A stretch of 64,000 nt of DNA from Chloroflexota bacterium (GTDB lineage: Bacteria; Chloroflexota; UBA11872): positions 2,379,226-2,443,225 of the forward strand of contig OY764080.1 of NCBI GenBank assembly GCA_963667925.1. Reading direction: 5' to 3'. Below are positions 3,750 to 62,505 of the stretch, piece by piece; positions within the stretch are counted from its first letter, which is position 1; each line of letters begins with the position of its first letter. Under the pieces are notes generated by a model. That model made no database searches. It worked only from the letters and a program-made list of their open reading frames with translations, and was not told the origin of the DNA. The position numbers and the translations under genes were made by a program.

Positions 3750-6700
3750 TTAGGCCGCAGGCGTTCGCACGATGTGCGCCGGCACGTCCTGAACGGCGCG
3801 CTCGGCCCAGTGTGGGTCGGCGGTGAAGAGGAACACCTGCCGGTCGCCGGGCATGTTGGCCAATGCTGCAAGGCCGCTGGCGGTCCGTCCCGGATCCCAG
3901 TTGACGAACATCTCATCGAGGAACAGCGGCAGCGGCTCGTCACCTTCCACGAGATCGACCATGGCCAGCCGCAACGCGAAGTAAATCTGTTGAATCGTCC
4001 CGCGGCTCAGCGGCGTATCCACATCCTGAGGAAAGTCCTCGCCGGTCCGCCGAACCTGGAGATTGGCCCCCGAAGAACTGGCGTCGTCGACACTCAGCAG
4101 GTCATATCGTTCGTGCGTGAAGCCGCGTAGGTATCGGCCCGCCACAGAGAGCAATGGCGACTGATATCGGTCGCGATACGACGTGTCGGCTTCCTGCACC
4201 AGCTTCTGCAGAAGGGCTACCCGGTCGTGCTCCCGGCGCACGAAATCCAGGCGCTCCTCCGCAGCTCTGATGGCACCCATTATGTGAGCAGGCCCCGGCT
4301 CGTCCATCCACCGATTGCGCTCCGTAGTTATTCTGCCGCGCTCATCCGCCAGGTCTTGGGCTGTCCGTCGCAGCTCCTCTGCTTCACGTCGGCTCTCAAC
4401 CCGTTCAGCGTCGCTGAGACCTATCTGAACGCCACCGTCCAGAAGCTGCTCGGCCTCGACGAATCGCTGCCGCCAGTCGGGGACGTCGCGCTCAAGCTCA
4501 AGCAGTACGCGTCGTGCTTCGGCGCGCAGATCGAACGCATGCAGCACCCGCTCGAGTCCAACCTCGGGGTTGGCACCGTGCGGATCAACGACGGCGAGTG
4601 AGGCGTCGATTCGTTCGAGTTTGACGTGACCATCGTCAAGCTCCTCGCCACAAGCCTCAAGCTGCTGGCGGAGGCCTGGAATCTCGGCATCTGCGATGTT
4701 GGCAATACGTTTGGTTTCCAACGCGTCTTCCAGCGCCCGCCGCGCGGCTGGCGCCGCCTCGAAGGGGTCAACGGGCAGTTCAATTGCGAGTTCCTCCCGC
4801 AGGCGTGTCACCCCGTCGTACCAGGCCTTAAGACTTGCGGCCACTTGTCGCCTATTGCGGCGCAGACGTTGGGCGCTGCCTACAATCTGGCGCATGTCTT
4901 CCAGGTCTCGGACCATGGCTTCATTAGGCGTTTCACGCTGTACTGGCGCGATCGGCACGTCTGCAACTACTGACAGAAACTCCGCATGCGCCTCGCCGGA
5001 GGCCGTCGCGGCCCGCTCTACCTCGGCCTCCGCAGCCTCTAGCTCAGCCTGGCCTGCCTCGAGTTCCTGGCGCAGCCGCATCACGTCAGCCTTGGCTTGC
5101 TCTGCGGCGCGCTCAACCTCCAGCGCATCCTGAAGCGCCCGCCGCGCGGCCGGTGCCGAGTCGAAAGGATCTACCGGCAGGTCGCGCCCAAGCGTCGGCA
5201 TCAACCGCTCGACTTCGTCTCGCCAGGCGGCCAGCCGTGAAGCCACAGCTTCTCGATTTCGCCGCAGTCGCTCGGCACTGCTCAGCATCAGACGCATCTC
5301 TTCTAAGTCGCGGACCAAGCCCTCATCAGGAGTCTCATGCTGTACTGGCGCGATCGGCACATCCGCAACTACCGACAGAAACTCCGCATGCGCTTTGCTC
5401 GCTGCCGTAGCGGCCCGCTCAACCTCGGCCTCCGCCGCCTCTAGCTCCGCCTGGCCTGCCTCAAGTTCCTGGCGCAGCCGCATCACGTCAGCCTTGGCTT
5501 GCTCTGCGGCGCGCTCAACCTCCAGCGCATCCTGTAGTGCCCGCCGCGCGGCCGGTGTCGCCTCGAAAGGGTTTTCCGGCAGGTCGCGCCCAATCGTCGG
5601 CGTCAACCGCTCGACTTCGCCTCGCCAGGCGGCCAGCCGTGTTGCCACAGCTTCTCGATTTCGCCGCAGTCGCTCGGCGCTGCTCAGCATCAGACGCATC
5701 TCTTCTAGGTCGCGAAGCAGCCCCTCGTCCGGCGCCTCGAGGTGAATCCGAGCGACGGGGACATCCGCAACTACCGTTAGAAACTTCTCGTGCGCCCTCT
5801 CGGCCGTTCTTTCGTTGGCCATGACGCGCTCACGTGCTTCGACTTCGGATTCCTTCGCGTCTGCCATTTGCTCGAGCACGTCGTCGCGCCGCATGGCGGC
5901 GTCTCGACTTTTCTGAGTCCGCTTGACCTCGGCCTCAAGATCGGCGTCGAACTCGAGCCCTAGTCGATGGAGCCGCGATTCCAATCCGACGCTGGCCTTC
6001 TTCTGACGTCGGCGCGACCAACTTTTATTCGCAGCGACGGAAGCAACTACGGTCAGCACAGCCGCCACTGCAACAATGACAAGCACCCCAATCGGCGCGC
6101 TAAACGCGAAGGTAAATGAGAGGGCCAGCGCGCCGAGCAGGATCGGTATCGCTATCCAGGCAGCTGCATTCAGCGTCACCGGAGCCGAGATCAGAGCCTG
6201 GTAACGCGCAATGTGGTGGAGTTCTCGCAACCGGTCGTCGAGTTCAGCGCGGCTGTGCTCGGTCGCGACGGACTCAAGTCTCCGCTTCAAGCGGGCGCGA
6301 TTTGACTCAGCAGCTTGAAAGTCAACAACGGCGGCAGCCCGCTGCCGCACCGCAGCCTGCAGATTGGCAAAGCGTCCGCGCAATTCGCCCACAGAGAGCT
6401 TGAGCACCGCAATCCGCGTGTCTGCATCGACCTGATCCGTTCTCAGTATCCGTCCGGCAATCTCGCGCAGAGAGTCGTTGATGCCACGCGCCTCGGAATC
6501 AATGCTCGCAAGGCTCTCCTGGTTTTCCTGAGCACGGGAGAGTTCGCGGTCGAGACGCTCAATGTCAGTGCGAGCACCTAGCAGCGCAAGCATCCGATCC
6601 TCGATCTCGAGCGCCTGTTCACGCTCCTCAATCGCGAGTTGGGTTTCCCGTTGCTGAACCTGGAGTTGCACCAGACGATCACTAACCGACTGCACCTCTT

Positions 6701-8231
6701 GCCGGGACTCCCGCCACGCGGCGAAGCGCCCTCGTAACTCGGCCACCGAGATCGTGAGGAGTGCTCTGCGGGTAGCAGAGTCAATCTGATCGCACGTGAG
6801 CGTGCGCCCGGCGACTTCACGGAGTGCGCCGTCGCTGCGTTGCAGCTCTGCATTCATGCTCCGCACCCGGTCTTGGTTTTCCTGCGCGCGCGATGTCTCG
6901 CGGTCCAAGCGTTCGATATCCTCACGGACCTCCAGAAGCGCGCAGGTACCAACGTCAACCTCCAGCGCGGCTTCGCGGTCCGCGATCCTCTTACAGATGT
7001 CGTCTTGCCCAGACTGAAGCCGCTTCAGGCGACTATCCGCTGCGTCAAGCAGATTCCGGGAATCCCGCCAGCCGGCGAAGCGCCCACGCAATTCGACCAC
7101 TGAGAGTTCGTTAATCGCGCGGCAGACGCCTTCGTCAAGCTGTTCCACTGTGAGCACGCGCGCCGCCAGTTCTTGCAGCCCACCGTCGCTGCGCTGCAAC
7201 TCACTATCCATGCTCCTGATGCGATCACGATCCTCTTGCGCGCGAGACAGCTCGCGGTCCAGTCGCTCGACATCAGCGCGGGCAACCAAGAGACGGCGGA
7301 TTCCCGCCTCAACTTCACGCGCCTTCTCGCGCTTCGCGATCTTCACCCGAAGATCCTTCCGCTGTGCCGTGAGCTTCTCCGAGCGATCACGAAGTCTCGC
7401 TCGCTCTTCGGCGACACCGTCCCAGGTGTCGCCTCCGGGTGCCAGGTCCGCAGCCCGTGCTTCGAGTCCACGAAGACGGCCGACCCGTCGAACCAGAGGT
7501 GCCAGCGTGCGGTCCCGCTCTAGCGCTAGCTCAATGCGCTGTAGTTTTCGTTCATTTGCTGCCAGGTCTGAGGCAATCCCCCGCAGTCGCTCATCTGCCT
7601 GCTCGATCCGGCCACGGTGCTCACGAGCCTCGGCCAGGCTCCCGCGCAACCGCCGAATCTGATCGGTAAGCTCGCGGTGTGCCGGCTTCCCGCGACGATC
7701 GGACCGCCAGAGGCGCCGGCGGTCAGCCTCCAGGGCACGCACGATTTCGCGCGATGGCCGCAGATAGTCAAATGGACTTCCACCCAGCAGATTCTGCACG
7801 GCCTGCCAAGCCTGCTGATCAAGCCGGAGCGCCTCGTCTTGAGTCAAGGCATACACGTTCTTGAAGACGGCGCGGTCCATGAGGCCAGTCCAAGGAACCT
7901 GTCGATTGGCAAGATCGCCCTCGTCGCTGTTAATCCTGATTCGTCCAAACGGCCGCGCTCGGAGTCGACGTGCAACGCTAGCCAGATCGCCGTTGCGCAG
8001 CACAACATCCAGTCGACCGTGCGGATACTGTCCGCCCCAGGGTCGATAAGGATGGCCGTCGGCCGTGGCCGGAGAGAATCCGAACATTGCGCTGGTAAAA
8101 AACTCAAAGAGCGCGCTCTTCCCGGATTCGTTGGGACCGAGAACGACAACCACGTCATGGTCAGCAAGGCCCTTTGTCGACCAATCCGTGATTGGTCCAA
8201 AGTCAGCTATAGACCAACCCTCAACCCTCAC
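3750..8231 (-). CDS. Giant SMC/SbcC/Rad50-like AAA ATPase (YhaN/SbcF type, 1493 aa)
   Basis: N-terminal Walker A (VVVLGPNESGKSALFEFF); C-terminal signature LSRGTIQQIYFALRLAM and Walker B LPLFLDEMFVNWD. Between them, long coiled-coil arms with internal tandem repeats and a ~45-aa hydrophobic segment (AAWIAIPILLGALALSFTFAFSAPIGVLVIVAVAAVLTVVASVAA). 4-nt overlap with the upstream phosphoesterase gene. Confidence 0.8.
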   Translation of the reverse strand: MRVEGWSIADFGPITDWSTKGLADHDVVVVLGPNESGKSALFEFFTSAMFGFSPATADGHPYRPWGGQYPHGRLDVVLRNGDLASVARRLRARPFGRIRINSDEGDLANRQVPWTGLMDRAVFKNVYALTQDEALRLDQQAWQAVQNLLGGSPFDYLRPSREIVRALEADRRRLWRSDRRGKPAHRELTDQIRRLRGSLAEAREHRGRIEQADERLRGIASDLAANERKLQRIELALERDRTLAPLVRRVGRLRGLEARAADLAPGGDTWDGVAEERARLRDRSEKLTAQRKDLRVKIAKREKAREVEAGIRRLLVARADVERLDRELSRAQEDRDRIRSMDSELQRSDGGLQELAARVLTVEQLDEGVCRAINELSVVELRGRFAGWRDSRNLLDAADSRLKRLQSGQDDICKRIADREAALEVDVGTCALLEVREDIERLDRETSRAQENQDRVRSMNAELQRSDGALREVAGRTLTCDQIDSATRRALLTISVAELRGRFAAWRESRQEVQSVSDRLVQLQVQQRETQLAIEEREQALEIEDRMLALLGARTDIERLDRELSRAQENQESLASIDSEARGINDSLREIAGRILRTDQVDADTRIAVLKLSVGELRGRFANLQAAVRQRAAAVVDFQAAESNRARLKRRLESVATEHSRAELDDRLRELHHIARYQALISAPVTLNAAAWIAIPILLGALALSFTFAFSAPIGVLVIVAVAAVLTVVASVAANKSWSRRRQKKASVGLESRLHRLGLEFDADLEAEVKRTQKSRDAAMRRDDVLEQMADAKESEVEARERVMANERTAERAHEKFLTVVADVPVARIHLEAPDEGLLRDLEEMRLMLSSAERLRRNREAVATRLAAWRGEVERLTPTIGRDLPENPFEATPAARRALQDALEVERAAEQAKADVMRLRQELEAGQAELEAAEAEVERAATAASKAHAEFLSVVADVPIAPVQHETPDEGLVRDLEEMRLMLSSAERLRRNREAVASRLAAWRDEVERLMPTLGRDLPVDPFDSAPAARRALQDALEVERAAEQAKADVMRLRQELEAGQAELEAAEAEVERAATASGEAHAEFLSVVADVPIAPVQRETPNEAMVRDLEDMRQIVGSAQRLRRNRRQVAASLKAWYDGVTRLREELAIELPVDPFEAAPAARRALEDALETKRIANIADAEIPGLRQQLEACGEELDDGHVKLERIDASLAVVDPHGANPEVGLERVLHAFDLRAEARRVLLELERDVPDWRQRFVEAEQLLDGGVQIGLSDAERVESRREAEELRRTAQDLADERGRITTERNRWMDEPGPAHIMGAIRAAEERLDFVRREHDRVALLQKLVQEADTSYRDRYQSPLLSVAGRYLRGFTHERYDLLSVDDASSSGANLQVRRTGEDFPQDVDTPLSRGTIQQIYFALRLAMVDLVEGDEPLPLFLDEMFVNWDPGRTASGLAALANMPGDRQVFLFTADPHWAERAVQDVPAHIVRTPAA
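4540..5742. repeat. Intragenic tandem direct repeat, 3 x 402 bp (134 aa), in the C-terminal coiled-coil arm of the SMC-like ATPase
   Basis: Units starting at 4939 and 5341 begin with the identical ctgtactggcgcgatcggcac and are near-identical over long stretches. A third copy (~4540-4938) is more diverged. Confidence 0.85.
6440..7500. repeat. Intragenic tandem repeat, 3 x ~350 bp (~110-117 aa), in the N-terminal coiled-coil arm of the same gene
   Basis: Recurrent LERLDRELSRAQE(D/N)(R/Q)DR(I/V)RSM(D/N)(S/A)ELQRSDG(G/A)L(Q/R)E(L/V)A protein motif. DNA motif gcggtc(g/c)a(g/a)(a/t)cg(c/t)tc(a/g)a(t/c)at at ~6541, ~6891 and ~7245. Confidence 0.7.
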
Positions 8232-9559
8232 AGCCGATCCTCGCGCAGCATCCGCTCGGCAACTGCAAAGTCGAGTCCGTCCAGCAACTCGCGGAGATAA
8301 GCCAGCCGTTCGGGGCCATCAGGATGCTCATCGGCGAGAGCAAGTTCCTCCGGAGCCAGCCGGGCAAGGATCGAGTTGTCGACGCGCGCCAGATTCACGA
8401 GTTCGAGCGCTTCGCCCAGCACGTGCTGCTGGCCGACATATCGGGCGGGGTCGATCGGCGGATAGAGCCCGGCGTCGCGAACCTCGACTTCGAGCACCCC
8501 AAGCACTGCGCAAAGATCTTCGGCCAATTCGTTGCGCTCGTCGGCTCGGCGCAGTACATCGACCAGCGGGCAAGGGCCGGCAAGATTCACGCGCAGAATC
8601 CACTCTTGGTCGGGCAACACATTCGCGTCGGACTCGCGTAGACGTTCGAAATTCGCCCGTATTTGGTCCTGGAGAATGGTGATGCTGTGGGCACTTCTAA
8701 GGTCCGGACTTGGTAGTTCCTCCCAGCGCACGGGCGCCAGCGGGTGGAAGCGCACGCGAGGGGCAGCAGGCGGGTCCAAATCGACAACTAGTGCCCCCTT
8801 GGCGCCGGATTCTCCGAAGTCCCGGCCCTGCAGATTGCCGGAATACCAGGCGGGAGAGTCCTCGCGGATTCGTTGGCGTTTGTGGATATGACCGAGCGCC
8901 CAGTAGGCGTAGCCTGGATCTAGATCGGAAAGAGCAGCGGGTGCGTAGACGTGTCCAGCTTCGTCGTACGCCGCGCCCTGCGCGCCGCCGACATCTGCGT
9001 GCAAAAGCGCGACGGCAGGTTCCGGACCTGGCGCCTCCGGGAAGGATGCAGCAAGGTTGGTCGACTCGTGGGTCGTCTGGTGTCCCGCCCCCACAACCCA
9101 GCCCACGCGATTGCCTCCACGAAGGATGGGAATCTTCTGCGGCGTCCGGGACTTCAGTAGGCGAAGGCCGCCTGACGGCCAAGCAATGCGCGAAGCGCGG
9201 TAGTTGGCACGACCAGGATCGTGATTGCCGGTGGCGTAAACCACCGTCACATCGGCGTCAGCGAGCTGTTCCAGTTCACGTATCAGTTCTAACTCTGTTG
9301 CGATGGTTAGCCATTCGTTGTCGAACAGGTCGCCAGCGATCACCAGCGCGTCGGCATCTTTCAGAATGGTCAGAGCAACCAGTCTCTTGAGTGCCTCGCG
9401 GCCCGCGTCCTGAAGCCGTTGCCTTAGCGCGGGATCGTGACGTCGATAGGGAGTGTCGAGATGAATGTCAGCCGCGTGGACTATACGCACAGGCTCTTCC
9501 ACTTCCGCTATGATGGCGTCTGAAGCGTCCGGCGGCGGTGCACCGCCGCCGGACGCCAA
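8228..9559 (-). CDS. SbcD/Mre11-like calcineurin-type phosphoesterase (YhaO/SbcE type DNA-repair exonuclease)
   Basis: Motifs VHAADIHLD, GDLFD, GNHD and GHIH. ORF-track start is TTG at 9559; in-frame GTG at 9500-9502 or 9488-9490 (MRIVHAADIHLD) is the more plausible start. 4-nt overlap (8228-8231) with the ATPase gene implies translational coupling. Confidence 0.8.
   Translation of the reverse strand: MASGGGAPPPDASDAIIAEVEEPVRIVHAADIHLDTPYRRHDPALRQRLQDAGREALKRLVALTILKDADALVIAGDLFDNEWLTIATELELIRELEQLADADVTVVYATGNHDPGRANYRASRIAWPSGGLRLLKSRTPQKIPILRGGNRVGWVVGAGHQTTHESTNLAASFPEAPGPEPAVALLHADVGGAQGAAYDEAGHVYAPAALSDLDPGYAYWALGHIHKRQRIREDSPAWYSGNLQGRDFGESGAKGALVVDLDPPAAPRVRFHPLAPVRWEELPSPDLRSAHSITILQDQIRANFERLRESDANVLPDQEWILRVNLAGPCPLVDVLRRADERNELAEDLCAVLGVLEVEVRDAGLYPPIDPARYVGQQHVLGEALELVNLARVDNSILARLAPEELALADEHPDGPERLAYLRELLDGLDFAVAERMLREDRL
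9525..9556. promoter_or_regulatory. Perfect 32-bp GC-rich palindrome (GCGTCCGGCGGCGGTG|CACCGCCGCCGGACGC) at the 5' end of the phosphoesterase/ATPase operon
   Basis: Read directly from the sequence: 16+16 nt perfect inverted repeat. It lies between the ggt stop (9699) and the operon start (5' UTR, or first codons if the TTG start is real). Confidence 0.6.
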
Positions 9560-9610
9560 TGCCTGGCTCCAGCGGCTCTATACAAACACCGCCCAAGCCA
9601 CACGCGACCT

Positions 9611-9642
9611 TAGCATATTTAGCGAAATTTGCGGAAGTTCAA
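9611..9642 (-). promoter_or_regulatory. Candidate sigma70-like promoter (minus strand TTGAAC ... TAAATA/TATGCT) in the locally AT-rich ggt / yhaO intergenic region
   Basis: Hexamer inspection only. The region is markedly AT-richer than its flanks. Confidence 0.25.
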
Positions 9643-9698
9643 CCCTTTTATGGGAAGGGGCTGCAATCTCGCATTTTGGCGATTTTCCAGGAATACAC

Positions 9699-11300
9699 CT
9701 AGACGCCGATGGCGTAGCCGTCCCGACGTGGGTCGGCGCCTCCCTGGAGCGCGCCGGTCGCGGGGTTGCGGCTGGCGCCCTGCATGCCGCCGACGGCCAT
9801 GGTCCAGGGGTCGGTGGCTTCGGCGCCGTGGCCTCGGGCAGCCAGATCGTCAATCACGCTCTGGTCGATACGAGATTCGACAAGCACCAGGTCGCCATCC
9901 ATCAGCCGCATGCGCGGTGCTTCGATGGCGGCCTGCACGTCCAGCCCAAAGTCCACGTGCTGCACCAGGGCCTGCGGCTGGGTCTGGCAAATGCCGTAGC
10001 TGCCGGGCGTGCCCAGCGCCAAGACCGGCTCGCCATCGCGCAGGGTGATGGTGGGGGCAATTGGCAACGAGAGCGGGGCGCCCGGGTATAGGTGATTCGG
10101 GCTCAGCGGGTTCAGATCGCCCCACCGAAGCAAATCGTTGGTCAGCACGCCATGCCCCTGGACCACAATGCCCGAGCCGAACCCGGCGCCGAGGCTTTGG
10201 GTCAGACACACGGCGTTGCCTTCGGCGTCCATCACCGAGAACGAGGTGGTGTGCTCCAGCATGGGATCGGGCTTTGAGCCAGGCGCCGGCGCGGCTCCGA
10301 TCTGCTCCGTGGGACCGCTGATGGCCTCGGGCGAGTCCAGCAGACCGCGCAGCCGATCCAGATTCTCGTCCCCCAGGATTTCTTCGACGATCTCGATAGG
10401 CGCGTTGGCGTGGCGGAAGCGTACTTGGGATGACAGCCGAATGGCTCGGATGATCGCGTCCAGATGCTCCGCGCCATTTCGCTCGAGGGCCCCGATGTCC
10501 AGATGACTCACGAGGCCCAGCGTCATCAGCATCTGAAAGCCCTCGGACGGCGGCGGTGCGCCATTGACTTCCAGGTCGCGGTACGCGATTCGGATCGGGT
10601 CTTGCCAGCGCGCTTCCACGGCGGCCAGGTCTTCCATGGAGAGTGCCCCGCCGAGCGCCTGAATTTCATTGACCAAGGCCTGGCCCAGGGCACCGTGATA
10701 CAGGTAGTCGGGCCCCTCGCTGACCAGGGCCTCGTAGGTGTCGGCCAGGTCGTGCTGATGCAGCATCCAGCCGGCGCCCGGTTCTTCATCGTTGTCCAGG
10801 AAGATTTCCGACCAGCCGGGGAAGATCTCCGCGATGTCGTTCAGGCGGCCGCCGATCATGTGGGCGTTGCCTTCGCTGACGGGGAAGCCGCCGCGTGCAA
10901 GCTCAATGGCGTCGGCGAAGAGCTCGGCCGTCGTGCGCGTGCCGTACGTGTCCAGCAGCTTCATCCAGCCAGCGAGACTGGCCGGCGGGCCCACGCCGTG
11001 CGGACCGCGGGTCAGGTCGTCGTAGCGTCGCGCGATGGAATCGAACTTGAGCGGTACGGCCGGCGTGAAGTCCAAACAACGCACGCGGCGCTCGGCAGCC
11101 ACGTAGACCATGGCCGTGCCCATGCCGGCCAGCCCCGACATGTATGGCTCAACCACATCGAGCGCGGCTGCGGTGGCGACAGCGGCGTCAAATGCGTTGC
11201 CGCCGTTGGACAGGATGCGAGCGCCTGCCTGCGCCGCGAGAGGATGGGCCGCCGCGACTACGCCTCGGCGGGAGGTGACGCTTGGCCGCCGTCCAAACAT
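9699..11300 (-). CDS. ggt: Gamma-glutamyltranspeptidase
   Basis: GGT-family N-terminus (AAHPLAAQAGARIL..GGNAFDAAVA) and the catalytic Thr region TTSFSVMDAEGNAV; 533 aa. Confidence 0.9.
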   Translation of the reverse strand: MFGRRPSVTSRRGVVAAAHPLAAQAGARILSNGGNAFDAAVATAAALDVVEPYMSGLAGMGTAMVYVAAERRVRCLDFTPAVPLKFDSIARRYDDLTRGPHGVGPPASLAGWMKLLDTYGTRTTAELFADAIELARGGFPVSEGNAHMIGGRLNDIAEIFPGWSEIFLDNDEEPGAGWMLHQHDLADTYEALVSEGPDYLYHGALGQALVNEIQALGGALSMEDLAAVEARWQDPIRIAYRDLEVNGAPPPSEGFQMLMTLGLVSHLDIGALERNGAEHLDAIIRAIRLSSQVRFRHANAPIEIVEEILGDENLDRLRGLLDSPEAISGPTEQIGAAPAPGSKPDPMLEHTTSFSVMDAEGNAVCLTQSLGAGFGSGIVVQGHGVLTNDLLRWGDLNPLSPNHLYPGAPLSLPIAPTITLRDGEPVLALGTPGSYGICQTQPQALVQHVDFGLDVQAAIEAPRMRLMDGDLVLVESRIDQSVIDDLAARGHGAEATDPWTMAVGGMQGASRNPATGALQGGADPRRDGYAIGV

Positions 11301-17998: not shown

Positions 17999-18100
17999 GG
18001 GAATGCCTCCTCAGGACGTTTGGACCGCTTCCCTCCCCCGGGAAAAAGACGGGCACTTCGCCCGCCCACGACAGACAATGCGGCTACGCACAGTCTAGCA

Positions 18101-25581: not shown

Positions 25582-27591
25582 TCAGCGCGGAAACGCCCCA
25601 CGGACGCCGCCATCAACCGGCAAGACGGCGCCGGTGGTCTTGGCCGAACGATCGCTCGCAAGAAAAAGCACGGCCTCGGCTACGTCGTCCGCGCCAATCG
25701 GGGCTTGCAGAAGATTCCTGCGTCGATAGAAGTCTTCCAGCTGGTCAAGCGCCACACCGTGAGCTGCGGCTCGACCCGCCCGGAGTTCGTGGCTCCACAG
25801 CCGGGAATCAGTGAACACCGCGTCAGGATTGACCATGTTGACCCGGATTCCGTGCTCGCCGTTCTCTATGGCGAGCACGCGGCCCAGTTGCAACTGGGCC
25901 GCCTTGGCAGCGCTGTAGGCCCCAAAGCCCCGGCCGGGATCGAAGGCATTCTTGGTGCAAACCAGGACTACGCTGCCGCCGATACCCTGGGCGCACATTG
26001 CGCGAACGGCTGCACGGGTCACAAGAAAGTGCCCTGTGGCATTGACGTCAAGACTGCGCTCCCACGCGTCAAGCTCCAGGCTGGAAATTGACGCAGCGTC
26101 GGCAATGCCGGCGTTCGAGACGACGATGTCGATTCCACCTACCGCGCAAACCACCTGCCGCATGGCCGAATCAACGGCCAGCTGGTCCGTCACGTCCAGG
26201 CACAGCGCGTCGGCCGCATCACCGGAGTGACGTATCCGACTGGCAACCTCCTCGGCGCCAGGCTCGTCAATGTCGGACACAAAGACGTGGGCGCCCGCTG
26301 CAGCCAGCGACAGGGCGGAGGCACGGCCGATTCCACTCGCCGCTCCGGTCACGAGTGCTACCCGTCCGGCGAGATCACGATCCGGCGGTGCCAGCCTGAG
26401 TTTGTACAACTCCAACGGCCAGTACTCGATGTCGAACAGGTCGCGCTCTGGAAGCGCGGCGTAACCGCCCATTGATTCGGCGCCGTCGATCACGTCCATG
26501 GTGTGGCGGTAGATGCGAGCCACGGCGTCGGCCTCGGCGGCCGTACGGCCGCTGGCAAACATGCCGACACCCGGCGCGAGCACAACCCGAGGACCTGGGT
26601 CATGTCTGAAGTCGCTGTCGGAATCGGCGTGTTCATTGACGTAGGCGTCGTACGCAGCCTCATAGCCGGCCACCGCCCGCGGCGCGTCCTCAGGATCTGC
26701 TGACTCCAACACCAGCGGCAGACGCTTCGTCCGAAGCACGTGGTCAGGGGTGGCAGGGCCTTGCTGAGAGAGCCGGGCGACATCCGGCTGGTCGACAAAT
26801 GCGCAAACCCTGGGGCTCGTGTCCGACCGGACGACCATGTGTCGGCGACGGCTCAACAGGCTGCGGAGGGTCAGCGCGAGACTCGCGACGTCTGCCTCCG
26901 ATTTGGCCGTTGCCTGTCGCGGCCCAGACCAGGACCTCGCGATTCGGCTTTCAGCCAGTGAAACAAGCTCGACGTGACGTTCGTAGGACTCTTGCGCGGT
27001 CTCCCCGAACGTCACCAGCCCGTGTTTATCGAGTACGAGGCCGCTGACCGATGGATCGGCGTCATAAACGTCGGCGGCCGCCTTTGAGAGATCGAAGCCG
27101 GGCTTGATGTAAGGAACCAAACCGACAGCTCCGCGCAGGGCGTCGTGAACACGCGCGGCCCCGTCGGGCTGGTTGGTCAGGGTGAGGATCGCGTCGGCAT
27201 GGCTGTGGTCAATCCAGTCCAGCGGGATGAAGGCATGCAGCAAGGTCTCGATAGACGGTCGAGGCGCGCCCGTATCGAGGAGCGCCAGCGTGACCAGTTC
27301 GACCATGGCGTCGTCGTCCAGGGTCTCGCGTTCGCGTAGCTGAAGCAGGTCGTCGAGGGCGAGGGGGGCAAATCCCTCCGGGCCGATCGAGGCCAGATCG
27401 GTCCCACTACCCTTGATGGTGAGCGTCTGTCGCATACCCCCGCGCGGGTCTGAACGCAGGTGCTTGACCGACGTGTTCCCGCCACCAAAGAGGACCAGCG
27501 AGGGTTCAGCGCCGAGCAGGCGCGAGGTGTACACACGCAACGCGAGTGGATCCAGTCCGGCAGCGGCCTGCGACGACCAGCGTGAGCGCAC
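25582..27591 (-). CDS. Bifunctional class II aldolase / short-chain dehydrogenase (rhamnulose-1-phosphate aldolase/alcohol dehydrogenase-like)
   Basis: N-terminal class II aldolase/adducin domain and C-terminal SDR (ALVTGAASGIGRASAL; NAG; YxxxK). GTG start at 27589-27591 avoids overlap with the CinA-like gene; the ORF track extends to 27672. Confidence 0.85.
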   Translation of the reverse strand: MRSRWSSQAAAGLDPLALRVYTSRLLGAEPSLVLFGGGNTSVKHLRSDPRGGMRQTLTIKGSGTDLASIGPEGFAPLALDDLLQLRERETLDDDAMVELVTLALLDTGAPRPSIETLLHAFIPLDWIDHSHADAILTLTNQPDGAARVHDALRGAVGLVPYIKPGFDLSKAAADVYDADPSVSGLVLDKHGLVTFGETAQESYERHVELVSLAESRIARSWSGPRQATAKSEADVASLALTLRSLLSRRRHMVVRSDTSPRVCAFVDQPDVARLSQQGPATPDHVLRTKRLPLVLESADPEDAPRAVAGYEAAYDAYVNEHADSDSDFRHDPGPRVVLAPGVGMFASGRTAAEADAVARIYRHTMDVIDGAESMGGYAALPERDLFDIEYWPLELYKLRLAPPDRDLAGRVALVTGAASGIGRASALSLAAAGAHVFVSDIDEPGAEEVASRIRHSGDAADALCLDVTDQLAVDSAMRQVVCAVGGIDIVVSNAGIADAASISSLELDAWERSLDVNATGHFLVTRAAVRAMCAQGIGGSVVLVCTKNAFDPGRGFGAYSAAKAAQLQLGRVLAIENGEHGIRVNMVNPDAVFTDSRLWSHELRAGRAAAHGVALDQLEDFYRRRNLLQAPIGADDVAEAVLFLASDRSAKTTGAVLPVDGGVRGAFPR

Positions 27592-27605
27592 CGGCTTGAA
27601 TCCAG

Positions 27606-28412
27606 TTAGTCGCGCAGCGGGGCTGTGGGCTTCAGCGTGACAGTCTTCCCGGCCTCGGCGGCTATTCCGCAAAAGAGGTCGTACGCGGCGTCGAGCTGGA
27701 CCTTCGGATCTCCGCCGTCAGTGCTGCGAACCACGATGTCAACCGGCAGCCCATTCACACGCGACTGCCCCACGTATGCCTTCAGATAGGCTGCGGGAAC
27801 CTCCCGCATCACCCGCTGCATAAACGGCGAGGTCTCCGATTCGAATGAGTCGATGTAGACACGCATTCGGGCGGTTTGGGAGGAGAACATTCCGAGCAGC
27901 GCCGGCCGGATGTGCTTCTCAAAACAACCCTCAACTTCGCGCGGTGGGCCGGGCATCGACCAGATCGTCGCCTCACCAACCACGGTCGAAAAGCACGGCG
28001 CCCACCCAACCGGGTTGATGTGCACGGTGGATGCCCGCGGTATCGAGCCCATTTTGAGCCGAGGCGGTACCGACACCTCTTCGATCGTCATGTTTCGACG
28101 CTCGGCATAGTCTTCAATGACCTCGTACGGCGTATGCGTATCACTGCCTGCCACTGAGGCAATCGCATCAACCGTCATGTCATCGGGCGTTGGTCCAAGA
28201 CCGCCGGTGGTCAGAATCGCGCGCGGCTCGCGTGCCACGGCGGCGCGCAATTCCGCGATCAGCGCATCCAGGTCGTCGGCCAGCGCCGTAATGCGGCGAA
28301 CGTCGCCGCCGGCAACCGACACTTCGCCGGCCAACCAGTGAGAGTTCGTGTCCAGCACCAGCCCGGACACGAGTTCCGTTCCGATCGAGAAGATCTCAAC
28401 GTCGTCGTTCAT
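27606..28412 (-). CDS. CinA-like molybdopterin-binding (MoCF_biosynth) domain protein
   Basis: EIFSIGTELVSGLVLDTNSHWLAGEV...TTGGLGPTPDDMT matches the CinA N-terminal domain. Confidence 0.7.
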   Translation of the reverse strand: MNDDVEIFSIGTELVSGLVLDTNSHWLAGEVSVAGGDVRRITALADDLDALIAELRAAVAREPRAILTTGGLGPTPDDMTVDAIASVAGSDTHTPYEVIEDYAERRNMTIEEVSVPPRLKMGSIPRASTVHINPVGWAPCFSTVVGEATIWSMPGPPREVEGCFEKHIRPALLGMFSSQTARMRVYIDSFESETSPFMQRVMREVPAAYLKAYVGQSRVNGLPVDIVVRSTDGGDPKVQLDAAYDLFCGIAAEAGKTVTLKPTAPLRD

Positions 28413-28470: not shown

Positions 28471-29313
28471 GTGCTAGCCTTCCGCCCGGCACGTCGACAG
28501 GTTGGCAGTGAAATGGGGTCCGACTGGTACGCGCAGCGCGGATTCTCGAAGGAGACCCTGCGGCGCGCGCGCGCCTGGTACCTGCAGTTCATCCCGGAAC
28601 CCGGCGATCTCCTGGACGTGGGATGCGGTCGCGGTGAGTTCCTCGCGGTAGCCGCCGAGGCGGGTCACCGGGTAGTTGGCATCGATCACGAACCTGAGAT
28701 GCTGGCACACGTTGGCAATCTGCCCGTGCACCAGGGCGACGCGCTCGACTTTCTTCAGAGCACGCCGGACCAGTACGACGCGATCACGGCATTCCACGTA
28801 ATCGAGCATTTGGCGGTTCGCGAGGCCGACGCCCTCGTTCAACTTGCCGCCGACCGGCTGCGGTCCGGGGGCAGGCTCATCATCGCGACTCCGAATCCAG
28901 GCAGCCTTCCGACCATTTCGCATGAATTCTGGCGCGACCCGACGCATGTTCGGCCTTATGACCGGGAACTGATCGAGTATTTGACCAACGCTGCCGGATT
29001 GGAGTCCGTCGCCGCGGGCGTCAACCCCGAGTCAGAGCGCGGTCTGCCGGTGGATCTGGCCGACCTTGGACTCACGCCGCCCGCGCAGTCTCAGGGCGAG
29101 TCGGGTCCACCAGACACCCGCGCATCACGTTGGGTCGCGGGGCAGTTGGCCGGCTCAAACTATGGGCGCGACCTTGAGCGGGCCATCCATGAGATTTCCG
29201 ACGGCTTGCTTCACACCCGCCAGGAATTGGCTCGCGTCGCTGGCGTGCTGCGACGGTTCCTGGAGGTGGCCTATGAGCCGTCGGAACTCTACGTAGTCGC
29301 GCGGCGTTCCTAG
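28471..29313 (+). CDS. Class I SAM-dependent methyltransferase
   Basis: Motif I LDVGCGRGEF. Start may be MGSDWY at 28513. Confidence 0.7.
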   Translation: MLAFRPARRQVGSEMGSDWYAQRGFSKETLRRARAWYLQFIPEPGDLLDVGCGRGEFLAVAAEAGHRVVGIDHEPEMLAHVGNLPVHQGDALDFLQSTPDQYDAITAFHVIEHLAVREADALVQLAADRLRSGGRLIIATPNPGSLPTISHEFWRDPTHVRPYDRELIEYLTNAAGLESVAAGVNPESERGLPVDLADLGLTPPAQSQGESGPPDTRASRWVAGQLAGSNYGRDLERAIHEISDGLLHTRQELARVAGVLRRFLEVAYEPSELYVVARRS

Positions 29314-52860: not shown

Positions 52861-54564
52861 ATGCAGGCTGTCGAGACTGACATTGCGGTAATTGGTGGGG
52901 GACCGGCGGGGTCTTCGCTGGCCACGTTGCTGCGGCAGAGCGGATACAAGGTGACGTTGCTGGAGCGGGAGCGGTTTCCGCGGCCGCACGTGGGCGAGTC
53001 GATGTTGCCGGGGGTGCTGTTTGCGCTAGGGAAGACCGGGGCGCTGGAGCGGGTGGAGAAGGCCGGATTCACGAGGAAGTACGGGGCGACGTATATCTGG
53101 GGGCGGGGTCGAGACCCGTGGACAATTCGATTCTCGGAGGTTCCGCAGGACCGAACGTTTACATTCCAGTGCGACCGAGAGGTGTTCGACAAGCTGCTGC
53201 TGGACCACGCGCGGGACGAGGGGGTTGACGTGCGGGAAGGCCACCAGGTGACGCGCGCGCACATGACTAACGGAAGGGTTTCAGGGCTGTCGTTTACGAA
53301 TGACGAGGGGGAGTCGGGAGAGGTTCGGGCGCGGATGTGCGTGGATGCTTCGGGTCAGTGGTCGGTGCTGGGACGGCAGTTCCGGCTGCGCGAGCACAAC
53401 CATGACCTGCGGCACGTGGCGCTGTTCGGTCATTACCACGGCGGGCCGACGACGCTGCCCGACGTGCTGGACGAGATGGAGCCGACGGACGCTGGAAATG
53501 TGTACGTGGTGGCGGTGGACGACGGGTGGCTGTGGCATATCCCGCTGGCCGGAGGGCTGCGAAGCATCGGGCTGGTGACGGATCCGGAACGGATCCGCGG
53601 GATGTCGCGGACGGAGCGGCGGAAGTACTGGCAGCGGCAGGTGGACTCGTGCGAAGAGTTTGAGCAGCTCCTGGACGGAGGTCGCTGGGCGGGGGATTTC
53701 GACACCGTGTCGGACTGGTCGTTCATCTGTAGGCAGTTTCACGGGCCGGGCTACCTGCTTGTGGGCGATGCGGCGTGCTTCGTGGATCCAATCCTGGCGT
53801 CAGGCATCGCGCTGGCCCTGCAAGGCGTGCTGCGGGCGACGAAGGCGATTCGAACCTCGCTGGAAGCGCCGGACCTGAATCGGCTGGCGATGGATTGGTA
53901 CCAGGAGGGCTACCTACAGCAGGCGAACGATTTCGTGGACATGGCGAATCACTGGTATCACGGGCAGCGCTTGCAGGAGTCGTGGTTCTGGACGGCGCAC
54001 CGGCTGGTAGACCCGAGCCAGAACTTGTCGCTGCGGCAGGCGTTTGTGTTCATTTCGTCCGGGCTGACGCGGGAGACGCCGGAGGAGTCGATCCGCTATA
54101 TGGGCGGATTTACGCCAGGGCAGCTGGCGGTGACGTACGAGAACCTGGGCGTCGAAGGTGGCGCCACAGGCACACCGCTACAGGCCGAGCAGTCATCAGC
54201 GCCGCCATTGGCGCCTCGGGGAGTTGCCGTGACGACGGAGGAAGCGCTGGCCGGGGTCCCGACGTTTATGGCGGGCGCGGAGGTTCGGGCGGGGATGCAG
54301 GAGACGGAGACGGGGTTGCGGCCGGTTACACAGGTCGAACTGCCGGGGGCGGCGAACGGGGATAAGCGGGAGGTTTTGCTCTCGCTGCCGACGCTGTCGG
54401 TGCTGAATCTGCTGGACGGTCGTCGTAGCGGGGCGGAGGTGGCGCAGACGCTGGCGGCGCGGTTTGCGGGGAGTGTGCGGACGGACGAGTCGGCGCTGCG
54501 GCCGATTGTTGGGTCGGTGATTGCGGATCTGGCGGCTGAGGGGGCGGTGGAGTTCAAGAAGTAG
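52861..54564 (+). CDS. Flavin-dependent halogenase (tryptophan-halogenase family) with ~120-aa C-terminal extension
   Basis: FAD motif GGGPAGS, halogenase signature GWLWHIPL (WxWxIP) and FVDPILASG (FxxPxxSxG). Confidence 0.8.
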   Translation: MQAVETDIAVIGGGPAGSSLATLLRQSGYKVTLLERERFPRPHVGESMLPGVLFALGKTGALERVEKAGFTRKYGATYIWGRGRDPWTIRFSEVPQDRTFTFQCDREVFDKLLLDHARDEGVDVREGHQVTRAHMTNGRVSGLSFTNDEGESGEVRARMCVDASGQWSVLGRQFRLREHNHDLRHVALFGHYHGGPTTLPDVLDEMEPTDAGNVYVVAVDDGWLWHIPLAGGLRSIGLVTDPERIRGMSRTERRKYWQRQVDSCEEFEQLLDGGRWAGDFDTVSDWSFICRQFHGPGYLLVGDAACFVDPILASGIALALQGVLRATKAIRTSLEAPDLNRLAMDWYQEGYLQQANDFVDMANHWYHGQRLQESWFWTAHRLVDPSQNLSLRQAFVFISSGLTRETPEESIRYMGGFTPGQLAVTYENLGVEGGATGTPLQAEQSSAPPLAPRGVAVTTEEALAGVPTFMAGAEVRAGMQETETGLRPVTQVELPGAANGDKREVLLSLPTLSVLNLLDGRRSGAEVAQTLAARFAGSVRTDESALRPIVGSVIADLAAEGAVEFKK

Positions 54565-54820
54565 TGAGGGAAGCGGAGTGGGAAGTTAGAGAAGGGGGAT
54601 AGGGAAGTAGGAGTAAGCGAGCGTAGGTGCGGGGGTGTGGTTCGACGCGGGCCTCCGTAAGACTCCGGCCCGGCTCACCACGAACGGTTGGGTGAGCCGG
54701 CAATGGTCGGGGATGGGCGAGAAGTGCAGGGTGAGTTGGGGATGTTGGTTGCTGCTGGGTCCCAGCTGAAGACGCCGGGATGACGGGGACTCGGGACCGA
54801 CGGTTGGGGTGATTAATGCC

Positions 54821-54853
54821 AAACGGCCCGCCGCTTCCCGCGGCGGGCCGTTT
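54821..54853. terminator. Bidirectional rho-independent terminator between the convergent halogenase and solute-binding genes
   Basis: 13-bp GC-rich stem (AAACGGCCCGCCG / CGGCGGGCCGTTT) with a 7-nt loop, flanked by A-run and T-run so each strand has a U-tract. Confidence 0.6.
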
Positions 54854-54868
54854 GAGGATCCGCGAAGA

Positions 54869-60986: not shown

Positions 60987-62249
60987 ATGCGGGTAACGCT
61001 GGCCTTCACGATCAAGGAGTTCCTGCTGCTGCTGCGGGATCCGGGCGGCCTGTTTGTGCTGTTCCTGATGCCGGTGATGTTCATGGTGGTCTTCAGCCTG
61101 GCGCTGGGCGGGCTGTTTGAGGAAGGCGCGGCTGAAGGTTCGGCCAGGGCGCTGGAGGTACCGGTGGCGACGGGCGGCGCGGGCGAGGTGGCCGAACGGG
61201 TGGTGGAGCAACTGGACGCAACGCAAGGACTGGCCATTGTTCGCGAGCAGGACGGTGAGGCGCTAACGGCGGATCAGGTGGCTCAGTTGGTGGCGGACGG
61301 CGAGTACCCGGTGGGGGTCGTTTTCCCCGAAGGACTAACGACACTCCTGGAAGATCCGCGCATCCTCCGGGGCGAGCAGGTACAGCCGCTGGAGGTAGAC
61401 GTCATTGTGGATCCGGCAACCACAGGGCAGGTGACGGGTCCGCTGGAGGGCGCGTTGAGCGCGGTTCTACAACAGGTCGTGGGCCAGCGGCTGGGCGAGG
61501 CGGGGGCGGCGGCCTGGTTCGAGCAGGTAGCCGCTGGTCTGCCGGCCGAGGTTCGCGAACAGCTGGCGGCGTCGATGCAGCAGGGCGGTGAGGGAGAGGG
61601 CGCCCTGCCCGTGACGACGCGGCGGCGAGTTCCGCCGGGGGTCGAGCGCGAGCAGTTCCCGGACCAATTCCAGCAGAACGCGGCCGGTTACACGGTTATG
61701 GGGGTGTTTTTCATCGCCACGGTGATGATCGAGTCGATCTTCCGGGAGCGGCGGAGCGGGGCGATGCGACGCCTGCGGGCCGCGCCGGTGGGTCGGGCGC
61801 CGATCGTGATCAGCAAGCTGGCGCCGTTCTACGTGGTGAACCTGATCCAGATCGTGATCATGTTTGCGATCGCGCGGCTGGCGTTTGGGCTGGACCTGGG
61901 GTTTGTGCCGGCGCTGGTGGTGGTATCGGCGGCGCTGGCGCTGGTGGCCACGGGGCTGGGAATAGCGTTGGCCGGAGTCTCGCGCTCGGAGACGCAGGGG
62001 ACGGGCCTGGCGGTGATCGTGGTGCTGACGACGTCGGCGCTGGGCGGGGTGATGGTGCCGCGCTTCATCATGCCCGAGGCGATGCAGCAGATCGGCAACA
62101 TCACACCGCAAGCCTGGGCGATCCAGGGCTATCAGGACGTGCTGGTGCGCGGCCAGGGCGTCGGCGGCGTGTGGCTGGAAGCGGGCGTGCTGCTGATCTT
62201 TGCGGCAGTGTTCACAGCGATCGGAATCTGGCGGTTTCGGTTCGACTGA
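60987..62249 (+). CDS. ABC-2 type exporter permease (DrrB/YhgE-like, large extracytoplasmic loop)
   Basis: N-terminal TM, long periplasmic loop, then an ABC-2 membrane domain with ~5 TM segments. Confidence 0.85.
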   Translation: MRVTLAFTIKEFLLLLRDPGGLFVLFLMPVMFMVVFSLALGGLFEEGAAEGSARALEVPVATGGAGEVAERVVEQLDATQGLAIVREQDGEALTADQVAQLVADGEYPVGVVFPEGLTTLLEDPRILRGEQVQPLEVDVIVDPATTGQVTGPLEGALSAVLQQVVGQRLGEAGAAAWFEQVAAGLPAEVREQLAASMQQGGEGEGALPVTTRRRVPPGVEREQFPDQFQQNAAGYTVMGVFFIATVMIESIFRERRSGAMRRLRAAPVGRAPIVISKLAPFYVVNLIQIVIMFAIARLAFGLDLGFVPALVVVSAALALVATGLGIALAGVSRSETQGTGLAVIVVLTTSALGGVMVPRFIMPEAMQQIGNITPQAWAIQGYQDVLVRGQGVGGVWLEAGVLLIFAAVFTAIGIWRFRFD

Positions 62250-62505
62250 GGACAAGGCGCTAGGCTCGACTACGCTGTTGGCTCAGGTTTCTCCAGAAGT
62301 CGGGATTCAGACGGGCGACGGCGCTGACCGCATGATTCCAGGCGCACCGCGATCAGAGCGTTGACGACGAGCTGACCGACTGCCTGGTTTGCTGGCATCA
62401 CTCAAATGACCATGCGCTTTCGCTCATAAAACGCACATAACACGTCGATGCTTGACAATGGCTGGCCTTCAAGGCAATGTATCGGCAATTCGAAAAGGAG
62501 CAACA

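Follow-up and report, generated by a model that had tools for sequence, protein, structure and literature searches.

A G+C-rich palindrome upstream of a nuclease-ATPase operon in Chloroflexota as a probable leader stem-loop

Background

A number of bacterial mRNAs, including those of ompA, papA and aprE, are stabilised by stem-loops located at the 5' terminus or elsewhere in the leader, and the leader of rne carries a hairpin that is bound by a regulator (examples from the reference list of PMC3997798). Here we describe a G+C-rich palindrome at positions 9525-9556 of a 64-kb window (the whole stretch of DNA analysed, taken from contig OY764080.1 of a Chloroflexota bacterium, 65.5% G+C). The palindrome is located inside the 208-nt gap between ggt, encoding gamma-glutamyltranspeptidase, and an operon of two genes for a Mre11/SbcD-type nuclease and a large ATPase, with all of the relevant genes on the minus strand. 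We consider it fairly probable that the palindrome encodes a very stable RNA stem-loop in a ~110-nt 5' leader of the nuclease-ATPase operon mRNA; the element is a new, lineage-specific form of a known kind, the leader stem-loop. In what follows, P1 denotes a hairpin predicted at the putative 5' end of the transcript and P2 the hairpin formed by the palindrome.

As in ompA, papA and aprE, stable hairpins would be located at or near the 5' end of the leader and be followed by an accessible ribosome-binding site, with P1 falling within a few nucleotides of the presumed transcription start. The element also resembles these systems in being single-copy, specific to one gene and, presumably, cis-acting. 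Unlike them, it shows no sequence relationship to any of the three leaders, the palindrome is the second hairpin rather than the 5'-terminal one, and a 7-bp core is invariant, which is not needed for pure 5'-end protection. With the regulator-bound rne leader it shares a hairpin in the 5' untranslated region (UTR) whose structure and sequence are both under constraint and which precedes the gene of a nucleic-acid-processing enzyme; there is, however, no homology between the two, and P2 is dispensable in close relatives carrying other leader cassettes. A G+C-rich perfect stem with a tetraloop between two same-strand genes is also reminiscent of intrinsic terminators and attenuators, but P2 is without a U-tract in all six loci where it was found and lies downstream of a likely promoter. 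Similarly, G+C-rich intergenic palindromes forming stable RNA hairpins between co-directional genes are typical of REP/BIME elements, which are dispersed families, whereas the palindrome is single-copy in the 64 kb and in ~1.4 Mb of related loci. A literature search on the regulation of sbcDC returned nothing relevant.

Results

The palindrome consists of two 16-nt arms, GCGTCCGGCGGCGGTG followed by CACCGCCGCCGGACGC, that are 100% complementary with 0 nt between them, as seen both in the sequence itself and with a repeat finder. No longer perfect inverted repeat is present in the window, whether a loop of 0 or of up to 6 nt is allowed. In 100 dinucleotide-preserving shuffles of the window, the longest zero-spacer arms were mostly 8-9 nt and reached a maximum of 14 nt, while 16-nt arms were obtained in none (0/100); the palindrome is not a chance feature. 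Its predicted RNA fold is a 14-bp stem with a UGCA loop and a free energy of -35.2 kcal/mol (RNAfold adds one flanking G-C pair, giving 15 pairs), and it has the G+C-rich stem and short loop expected of an intrinsic terminator. An earlier note on this DNA had described a flawless 16+16 inverted repeat 35-66 nt upstream of a GTG start codon, and had proposed folding of the 5' UTR as a check: the description was exact on re-reading of the sequence, the palindrome spanning -66 to -35 relative to GTG 9490, and RNAfold predicts a very stable P2 hairpin.

Orthologous loci were collected from a species-representative genome set (L001-L080), from JGI metagenomes (L081-L160) and from assemblies with specific homologues of the nuclease (L161-L170), the relatives of the nuclease belonging to uncultured Chloroflexota genomes. 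In the JGI metagenomes amino-acid identity did not exceed 60%, and a hairpin was not found. In six loci a hairpin was present at this position, with its end 35-38 nt upstream of the nuclease start: the window's own (WIN), L163, L162, L165, L001 and L032. Conservation upstream of orthologous operons, another check proposed in the earlier note, was thus observed at five further loci. The nucleases encoded there share 75% (L163), 84% (L162), 83% (L165, a partial product corresponding to 62% of the query), 85% (L001) and 70% (L032) amino-acid identity with that of WIN. The L163 hairpin is the WIN 32-mer with one C-to-T change resulting in a G-U pair, L162 and L165 both carry CCCGGCGGAAG-GACG-CTTCCGCCGGG, and the remaining two loci carry CCCGGCGGAGT-TGGCC-ACTCCGCCGGG (L001) and CTCGGCGGGGG-GACG-CCTCCGCCGGG (L032).

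The core of the stem, CCGGCGG/CCGCCGG, was invariant in 6/6 loci, while three pairs inside the core and one outside it varied by compensatory substitutions; the first pair inside the core, for instance, reads C-G, U-G, A-U, A-U, A-U and G-U across the loci. In alignment A2, 91.7% of cells formed standard pairs, compared to 35-55% when partners were slid by 1-3 columns. Both sides had changed in 6 of the 14 pairs, and the observed covariation score was reached in none of 500 shuffles. The three spacer pairs were paired in 18/18 cells, with sense-strand G-U as the sole non-Watson-Crick type, and all three imperfect pairs of the 11-bp stem common to the six loci were likewise sense-strand G-U, none being A-C. 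Since a G-U pair on the sense strand corresponds to a C-A mismatch on the other, the sense fold was more stable in five of the six loci (-23.3 vs -14.4 kcal/mol in L032, -34.7 vs -29.5 kcal/mol in L163). Both the G-U bias and the greater stability of the sense fold are as would be predicted if selection acted on the helix of an RNA transcribed co-directionally with the genes.

Comparison of WIN with L163 revealed only two differences in the 81-nt block extending from GTGTGG to the end of the palindrome (97.5% conserved), while third codon positions were 68% identical in the flanking ggt and 77% in the nuclease gene. These data show a hairpin that is selected for sense-strand pairing, with its G+C core under sequence constraint, and the perfect 32-bp palindrome of WIN is best described as this lineage's longer (14 bp) form of a stem that measures 11 bp elsewhere. 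An invariant 7-bp core amid covarying neighbours suggests that the helix itself may be read, beyond any contribution to stability.

A motif of the extended -10 type, TGnTAnGnT, was invariant ~50 nt upstream of the palindrome in 6/6 loci; in WIN it reads TGCTAAGGT. Its general form TGnTAnnnT occurred six times on both strands of the window, compared to 20 in shuffles, and was thus approximately three-fold depleted. All six copies were intergenic and faced the downstream gene (Table 1), and five of the six read TGCTAnnnT. TGnTAnnnT is therefore, as far as sequence can tell, probably a working promoter element in this organism. Classical sigma-70 promoter matches were at or below expectation (window 1-60000). 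A candidate promoter had been placed at 9611-9642 by the earlier note, which was close, the conserved element itself being located at 9615-9607. Transcription would start near 9601-9599, ~7 nt past TGCTAAGGT, and because this element is taken as the promoter, the palindrome would occupy approximately +45 to +76 of a ~110-nt 5' UTR.

P1 (GGCUUGGGCGG...CCGCUGGAGCC) is predicted directly at this putative 5' end. Its stem and loop were 100% identical between WIN and L163. It folds in most of the leaders with weaker support from the alignment than P2 (81.8% of cells paired vs 29-55% in slid controls), and its loop is not conserved between leader lineages. An outer helix, P0 (GCUAAGGUCGCG with CGCCAUCAUAGC), was also considered and set aside: 85% of its cells were paired and four of its pairs had changed on both sides, but its 5' strand is the promoter motif, and it would probably not form in a transcript derived from that promoter.

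The open reading frame (ORF) of the nuclease can be opened either at GTG 9490, giving MRIVHAADIHLD, or at TTG 9559, giving LASGGGAPPPDAS..., and the deposited product P0001 (443 aa) uses the latter, with the palindrome translated as SGGGAPPPDA. In tblastn, related loci align from query residue 1 of the GTG-9490 product onwards, or in a few cases from residue 3 or 7, and the N-terminal sequences of the orthologues start with M/V/L-R-I/F-V-H. The N-terminal extension from TTG 9559 was rejected, as orthologues begin with MRIVHAAD-like sequences and align from residues 1-7; in L162 the frame is closed by a TGA located downstream of the hairpin and ahead of the ATG, and substitutions between WIN and L163 after the palindrome are mostly non-synonymous. 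On this sequence evidence the true nuclease start is GTG 9490, as the earlier note had preferred. The L163 product P0005 (443 aa) has the same start problem as P0001. No conserved ORF runs across the hairpin on either strand, frames and lengths differing among the loci. With the nuclease starting at GTG 9490 and no conserved ORF passing through the hairpin, the palindrome is non-coding. Two further coding candidates were discarded, namely an upstream leader peptide ending at a conserved TAG, which is open only in WIN, L163 and L162 and whose frame is not conserved, and an antisense ORF at 9465..10091, which is not conserved. The purine-rich Shine-Dalgarno region GGAAGUGGAAGAG is largely unpaired in predicted folds, and part of it, GGAAGTGG, is also found in a leader type lacking the palindrome.

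Table 1 Features of the ggt-nuclease region and copies of the promoter-type motif in the window
Feature	Position	Strand	Remarks
ggt (gamma-glutamyltranspeptidase)	9699..11300	-	Pfam G_glu_transpept 5e-103
Extended -10-type motif TGCTAAGGT (TGnTAnnnT)	9607..9615	-	Conserved in six loci; faces nuclease, 117 nt to start codon
Hairpin P1	9564..9600	-	Predicted folds; at inferred 5' end of transcript
Hairpin P2 (palindrome)	9525..9556	-	Fold; conserved position and covariation in six loci
Shine-Dalgarno region GGAAGUGGAAGAG	9494..9506	-	Purine-rich; largely unpaired in predicted folds
Nuclease, Mre11/SbcD-type metallophosphoesterase, 420 aa	8228..9490	-	Pfam Metallophos 4.7e-14
ATPase, 1493 aa	3750..8231	-	AAA_27 N-terminal domain and SMC/Rad50-like coiled coil
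Motif TGnTAnnnT	18100-18092	-	Faces nusA, 94 nt to start codon
Motif TGnTAnnnT	21262-21254	-	Faces homocysteine S-methyltransferase, 45 nt to start codon
Motif TGnTAnnnT	24844-24836	-	Faces nucleotidyl transferase (NTP-transferase), 34 nt to start codon
Motif TGnTAnnnT	28472-28480	+	Faces methyltransferase, ~40 nt to likely internal ATG (by eye)
Motif TGnTAnnnT	62543-62535	-	Faces ORF 61467..62255 (no Pfam match), ~280 nt

The ggt stop codon (TAG at 9701-9699, minus strand) lies 142 nt before the palindrome. The ATPase gene overlaps the nuclease stop by 4 nt, and the two are therefore regarded as one operon. Matches of the nuclease to the SbcD and Mre11 NCBIfam models were weak and all under the cut-off. 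A gene for a Crp/Fnr-family regulator is located two genes upstream, in a position that is kept in L163, L165 and L170.

Searches for a second copy of the hairpin in the window, by half-sites with up to three mismatches and with two covariance models, one built on the hairpin (R1) and the other on the entire leader (R2), were negative. In the window R1 recognised a single site, with the runner-up at 15 bits (E 0.11), and in 1.35 Mb of related loci it recognised one site per hairpin-bearing locus; across ~1.4 Mb of related loci, all matches of R1 and R2 were training sites. A repeat family or regulon site, for which the earlier note had proposed a search for further copies, was rejected on these grounds. 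No Rfam match at E <= 1 was obtained for window positions 9000-10200 or for L162, L163 and L165. A plasmid origin was also dismissed, the only match being a distant ggt.

The hairpin was seen only in loci with ggt upstream. Orthologous loci with ggt upstream but no hairpin have shorter or different leaders, and at least five leader types were distinguished. Sequence identity between L170 and L165 is 98-100% over ribF, crp and ggt and 98% over the initial ~150 nt of the nuclease gene; their leaders nevertheless differ, that of L170 being 114 nt long without the hairpin and that of L165 208 nt long with it. With near-identical flanks and different leaders, the leader thus behaves as an exchangeable cassette, and the hairpin is characteristic of one cassette family and dispensable for the operon. 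A different leader type was found in L011 (~5810-5870), L164 (218-272) and L169 (1335-1395), where ggt is either not directly adjacent or separated by a 460-nt spacer. The hairpin of this type (e.g. GGCGGGGAAGCGT...ACGCTTCCCCGCC) has 13-17-bp arms and a ~25-nt loop and is located ~130-210 nt upstream of the nuclease start.

Downstream of the leader, the C-terminal half of the nuclease and the ATPase exist as deeply divergent alleles (~60% nucleotide identity), with WIN, L170, L161, L162 and L001 representing one allele at 90-97% and L163, L165 and L003 carrying others. This mosaic (3750-11300 compared with L161-L166 and L170) suggests frequent recombination, diversifying selection or chimeric metagenome assemblies. 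In L164 (404-1688) the nuclease is encoded by two overlapping ORFs instead of one, and the L165 gene (3001-4001) has a truncated product of 264 aa and is separated from the ATPase gene by 200 nt; pseudogenes or long-read assembly errors may account for these defects.

A few further features of the window were recorded. In the nusA leader (18049-18100), a canonical hairpin with a U-tract (GUGGGCGGGCGAAGUGCCCGUCUUUUU) comes after a promoter-type motif, an arrangement that resembles the leader terminators of NusA autoregulation in other bacteria, and a 9-bp hairpin (CTGCTCGCT...AGCGAGCAG) directly precedes the promoter-type motif. A 12+12 zero-spacer perfect palindrome, GCGGCCCAGTTG followed by CAACTGGGCCGC, is located at 25879-25902 inside ORF 25582..27672. 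Another perfect inverted repeat at 54820-54854, with 15-nt arms and a 5-nt loop, starts with CAAA and ends with TTTG after ORF 52861..54564 and may be a bidirectional terminator.

Discussion

Of the readings offered by the earlier note, that of a stem-loop in the 5' UTR is supported by the position of the palindrome, by compensatory changes and sense-strand G-U pairs in the six loci and by the promoter-type motif upstream. According to the mechanism that we favour, transcription would start ~7 nt past the extended -10 element, and the RNA would fold into the 5'-terminal P1 and then P2, leaving ~35 nt largely unpaired in predicted folds, in which the ribosome-binding site and GTG 9490 are found. 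The tandem hairpins would act in cis on the mRNA, with P1 protecting the 5' end and the invariant helix of P2 serving as a barrier to degradation and/or as a dock for a trans-acting factor setting post-transcriptional expression of the operon; we infer for P2 a function in stability or factor binding.

Several points weigh against this interpretation. Both the start site and the very inclusion of the hairpin in the mRNA are deduced from sequence, and the outer helix predicted by RNAalifold (GCUA.../...UAGC) would require a start further upstream than the one proposed. Only six sequences, representing approximately four independent leader lineages, are available, and pairing counts are favoured by an alignment constructed with the hairpin at its centre. 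Structure alone cannot explain the invariant 7-bp core, to which a DNA-binding protein would also fit. Furthermore, ~20 more loci with ggt upstream are without the hairpin (L002-L010, L012-L019, L161, L166, L167, L169 and L170), among them the closest relative recovered, L170, whose nuclease falls into the same 90% protein cluster as that of WIN. Absence from orthologous loci, together with a transcription start mapping downstream of the palindrome, had been named in the earlier note as grounds for refutation; for the orthologous loci the outcome is mixed, the hairpin being missing from many of them, including L170, and present in five.

It is unlikely, in our judgement, that the hairpin is instead a 3'-end element of the ggt transcript (a U-tract-less terminator or exonuclease barrier) or an intercistronic structure in a ggt-nuclease co-transcript. 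It does lie downstream of ggt on the same strand, is very stable and is confined to loci with ggt upstream, and a terminator scan found nothing at 9300-9900, leaving ggt with no canonical terminator. Canonical hairpin plus U-tract sites were not enriched over window 1-60000 (8, 7 and 8 vs 14.6, 12.6 and 10.3 in shuffles), and non-canonical 3' ends may therefore be common here. However, the canonical hairpin of the nusA leader is followed by UUUUU, so that this organism appears to use U-tracts, and for the RNA polymerase of mycobacteria, another G+C-rich lineage, a U-tract requirement has been demonstrated (PMC3993855). The U-rich tract of ~7-9 nt expected directly 3' of the stem of an intrinsic terminator is missing from P2, the sequences found there being UUCAGACG in WIN, UGCAACC in L163, CAACCAG in L162, CGUCAAC in L001 and AGGUAAC in L032, and no U-tract follows the hairpin in any of the six loci. 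Its distance from the ggt stop, its position 35 nt before the next start codon and downstream of a conserved promoter-type motif, and the ~20 ggt-upstream loci without it all speak against a role for ggt, and make the terminator suggested by the earlier note unlikely. We regard as quite improbable the proposal that the palindrome is a DNA operator, at which a dimeric regulator bound to half-sites CCGGCGG and CCGCCGG would repress the operon, e.g. as a roadblock. The main argument left for it is the invariant core: the 7-bp half-sites are unchanged in approximately four leader lineages whose remainder is only 55-60% identical, their spacing is nearly constant (10-11 nt), and a Crp/Fnr-family gene keeps its position two genes upstream. 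An operator would have a freely varying spacer; here compensatory changes, for which an operator has no need, have preserved complementarity at all three spacer pairs, and every imperfect pair in the 11-bp common stem is a G-U on the same strand. The half-site spacing, at 10 nt in five loci and 11 in L001, is not fixed, the site would lie at ~+45 to +76 from the presumed start rather than over the promoter, and a second site was found neither in the window nor in related loci. No Crp/Fnr box was recognisable by eye in the leader, and to our knowledge the palindrome motif does not resemble Crp or Fnr boxes. The operator reading of the earlier note is accordingly disfavoured by the covarying spacer, the variable spacing, the position past the promoter and the lack of a second copy.

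Very improbable, too, is that P1 and P2 constitute a separate ~80-nt small RNA transcribed from the TGCTAAGGT promoter, with P2 as its terminator and the operon expressed via read-through. A promoter motif followed by two hairpins would fit such an RNA, and conservation is highest between the presumed start and the end of P2 (P1 loop included, in WIN vs L163), falling directly after P2. On the other side, there is no U-tail at any of the six loci, the 35 nt before GTG 9490 are too short for another promoter, which would render the operon wholly dependent on read-through, the Rfam search gave no match, and the P1 loop differs between leader lineages. Least credible of all is a palindrome without function, arisen by chance, by template switching in G+C-rich intergenic DNA or as the remnant of a mobile palindromic repeat. 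Its absence from L170 and the swappable nature of the intergenic region would agree with this, but the shuffles never produced 16-nt arms, six loci retain a covarying hairpin, the surrounding block is 97.5% conserved compared to 68-77% at third codon positions, and the element is single-copy; a lack of function is largely refuted by the conservation data. A bolder extension of the leader stem-loop that we favour, distinctly unlikely as matters stand, is that P1-P2 represents an undescribed regulatory RNA with an invariant helix recognised by a factor in trans, which might, in a case of autoregulation, be the hairpin-recognising nuclease-ATPase complex, and that the leader is exchanged between strains as a cassette alongside divergent nuclease and ATPase alleles.

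Conclusions

The analysis corrects the deposited gene call for P0001, placing the start at GTG 9490 in place of TTG 9559, and offers TGCTAnnnT, found in the window only before genes, as a usable promoter motif for this genome. It also provides a testable leader architecture for an operon of the DNA-repair type in an uncultured phylum, composed of an extended -10 element, a 5'-terminal hairpin, a conserved G+C hairpin and a ribosome-binding site. If the helix does not bind protein, the leader would be a routine stabilising structure; if it does, the element would join the very small set of sequences known to regulate Mre11/Rad50-type genes in bacteria.

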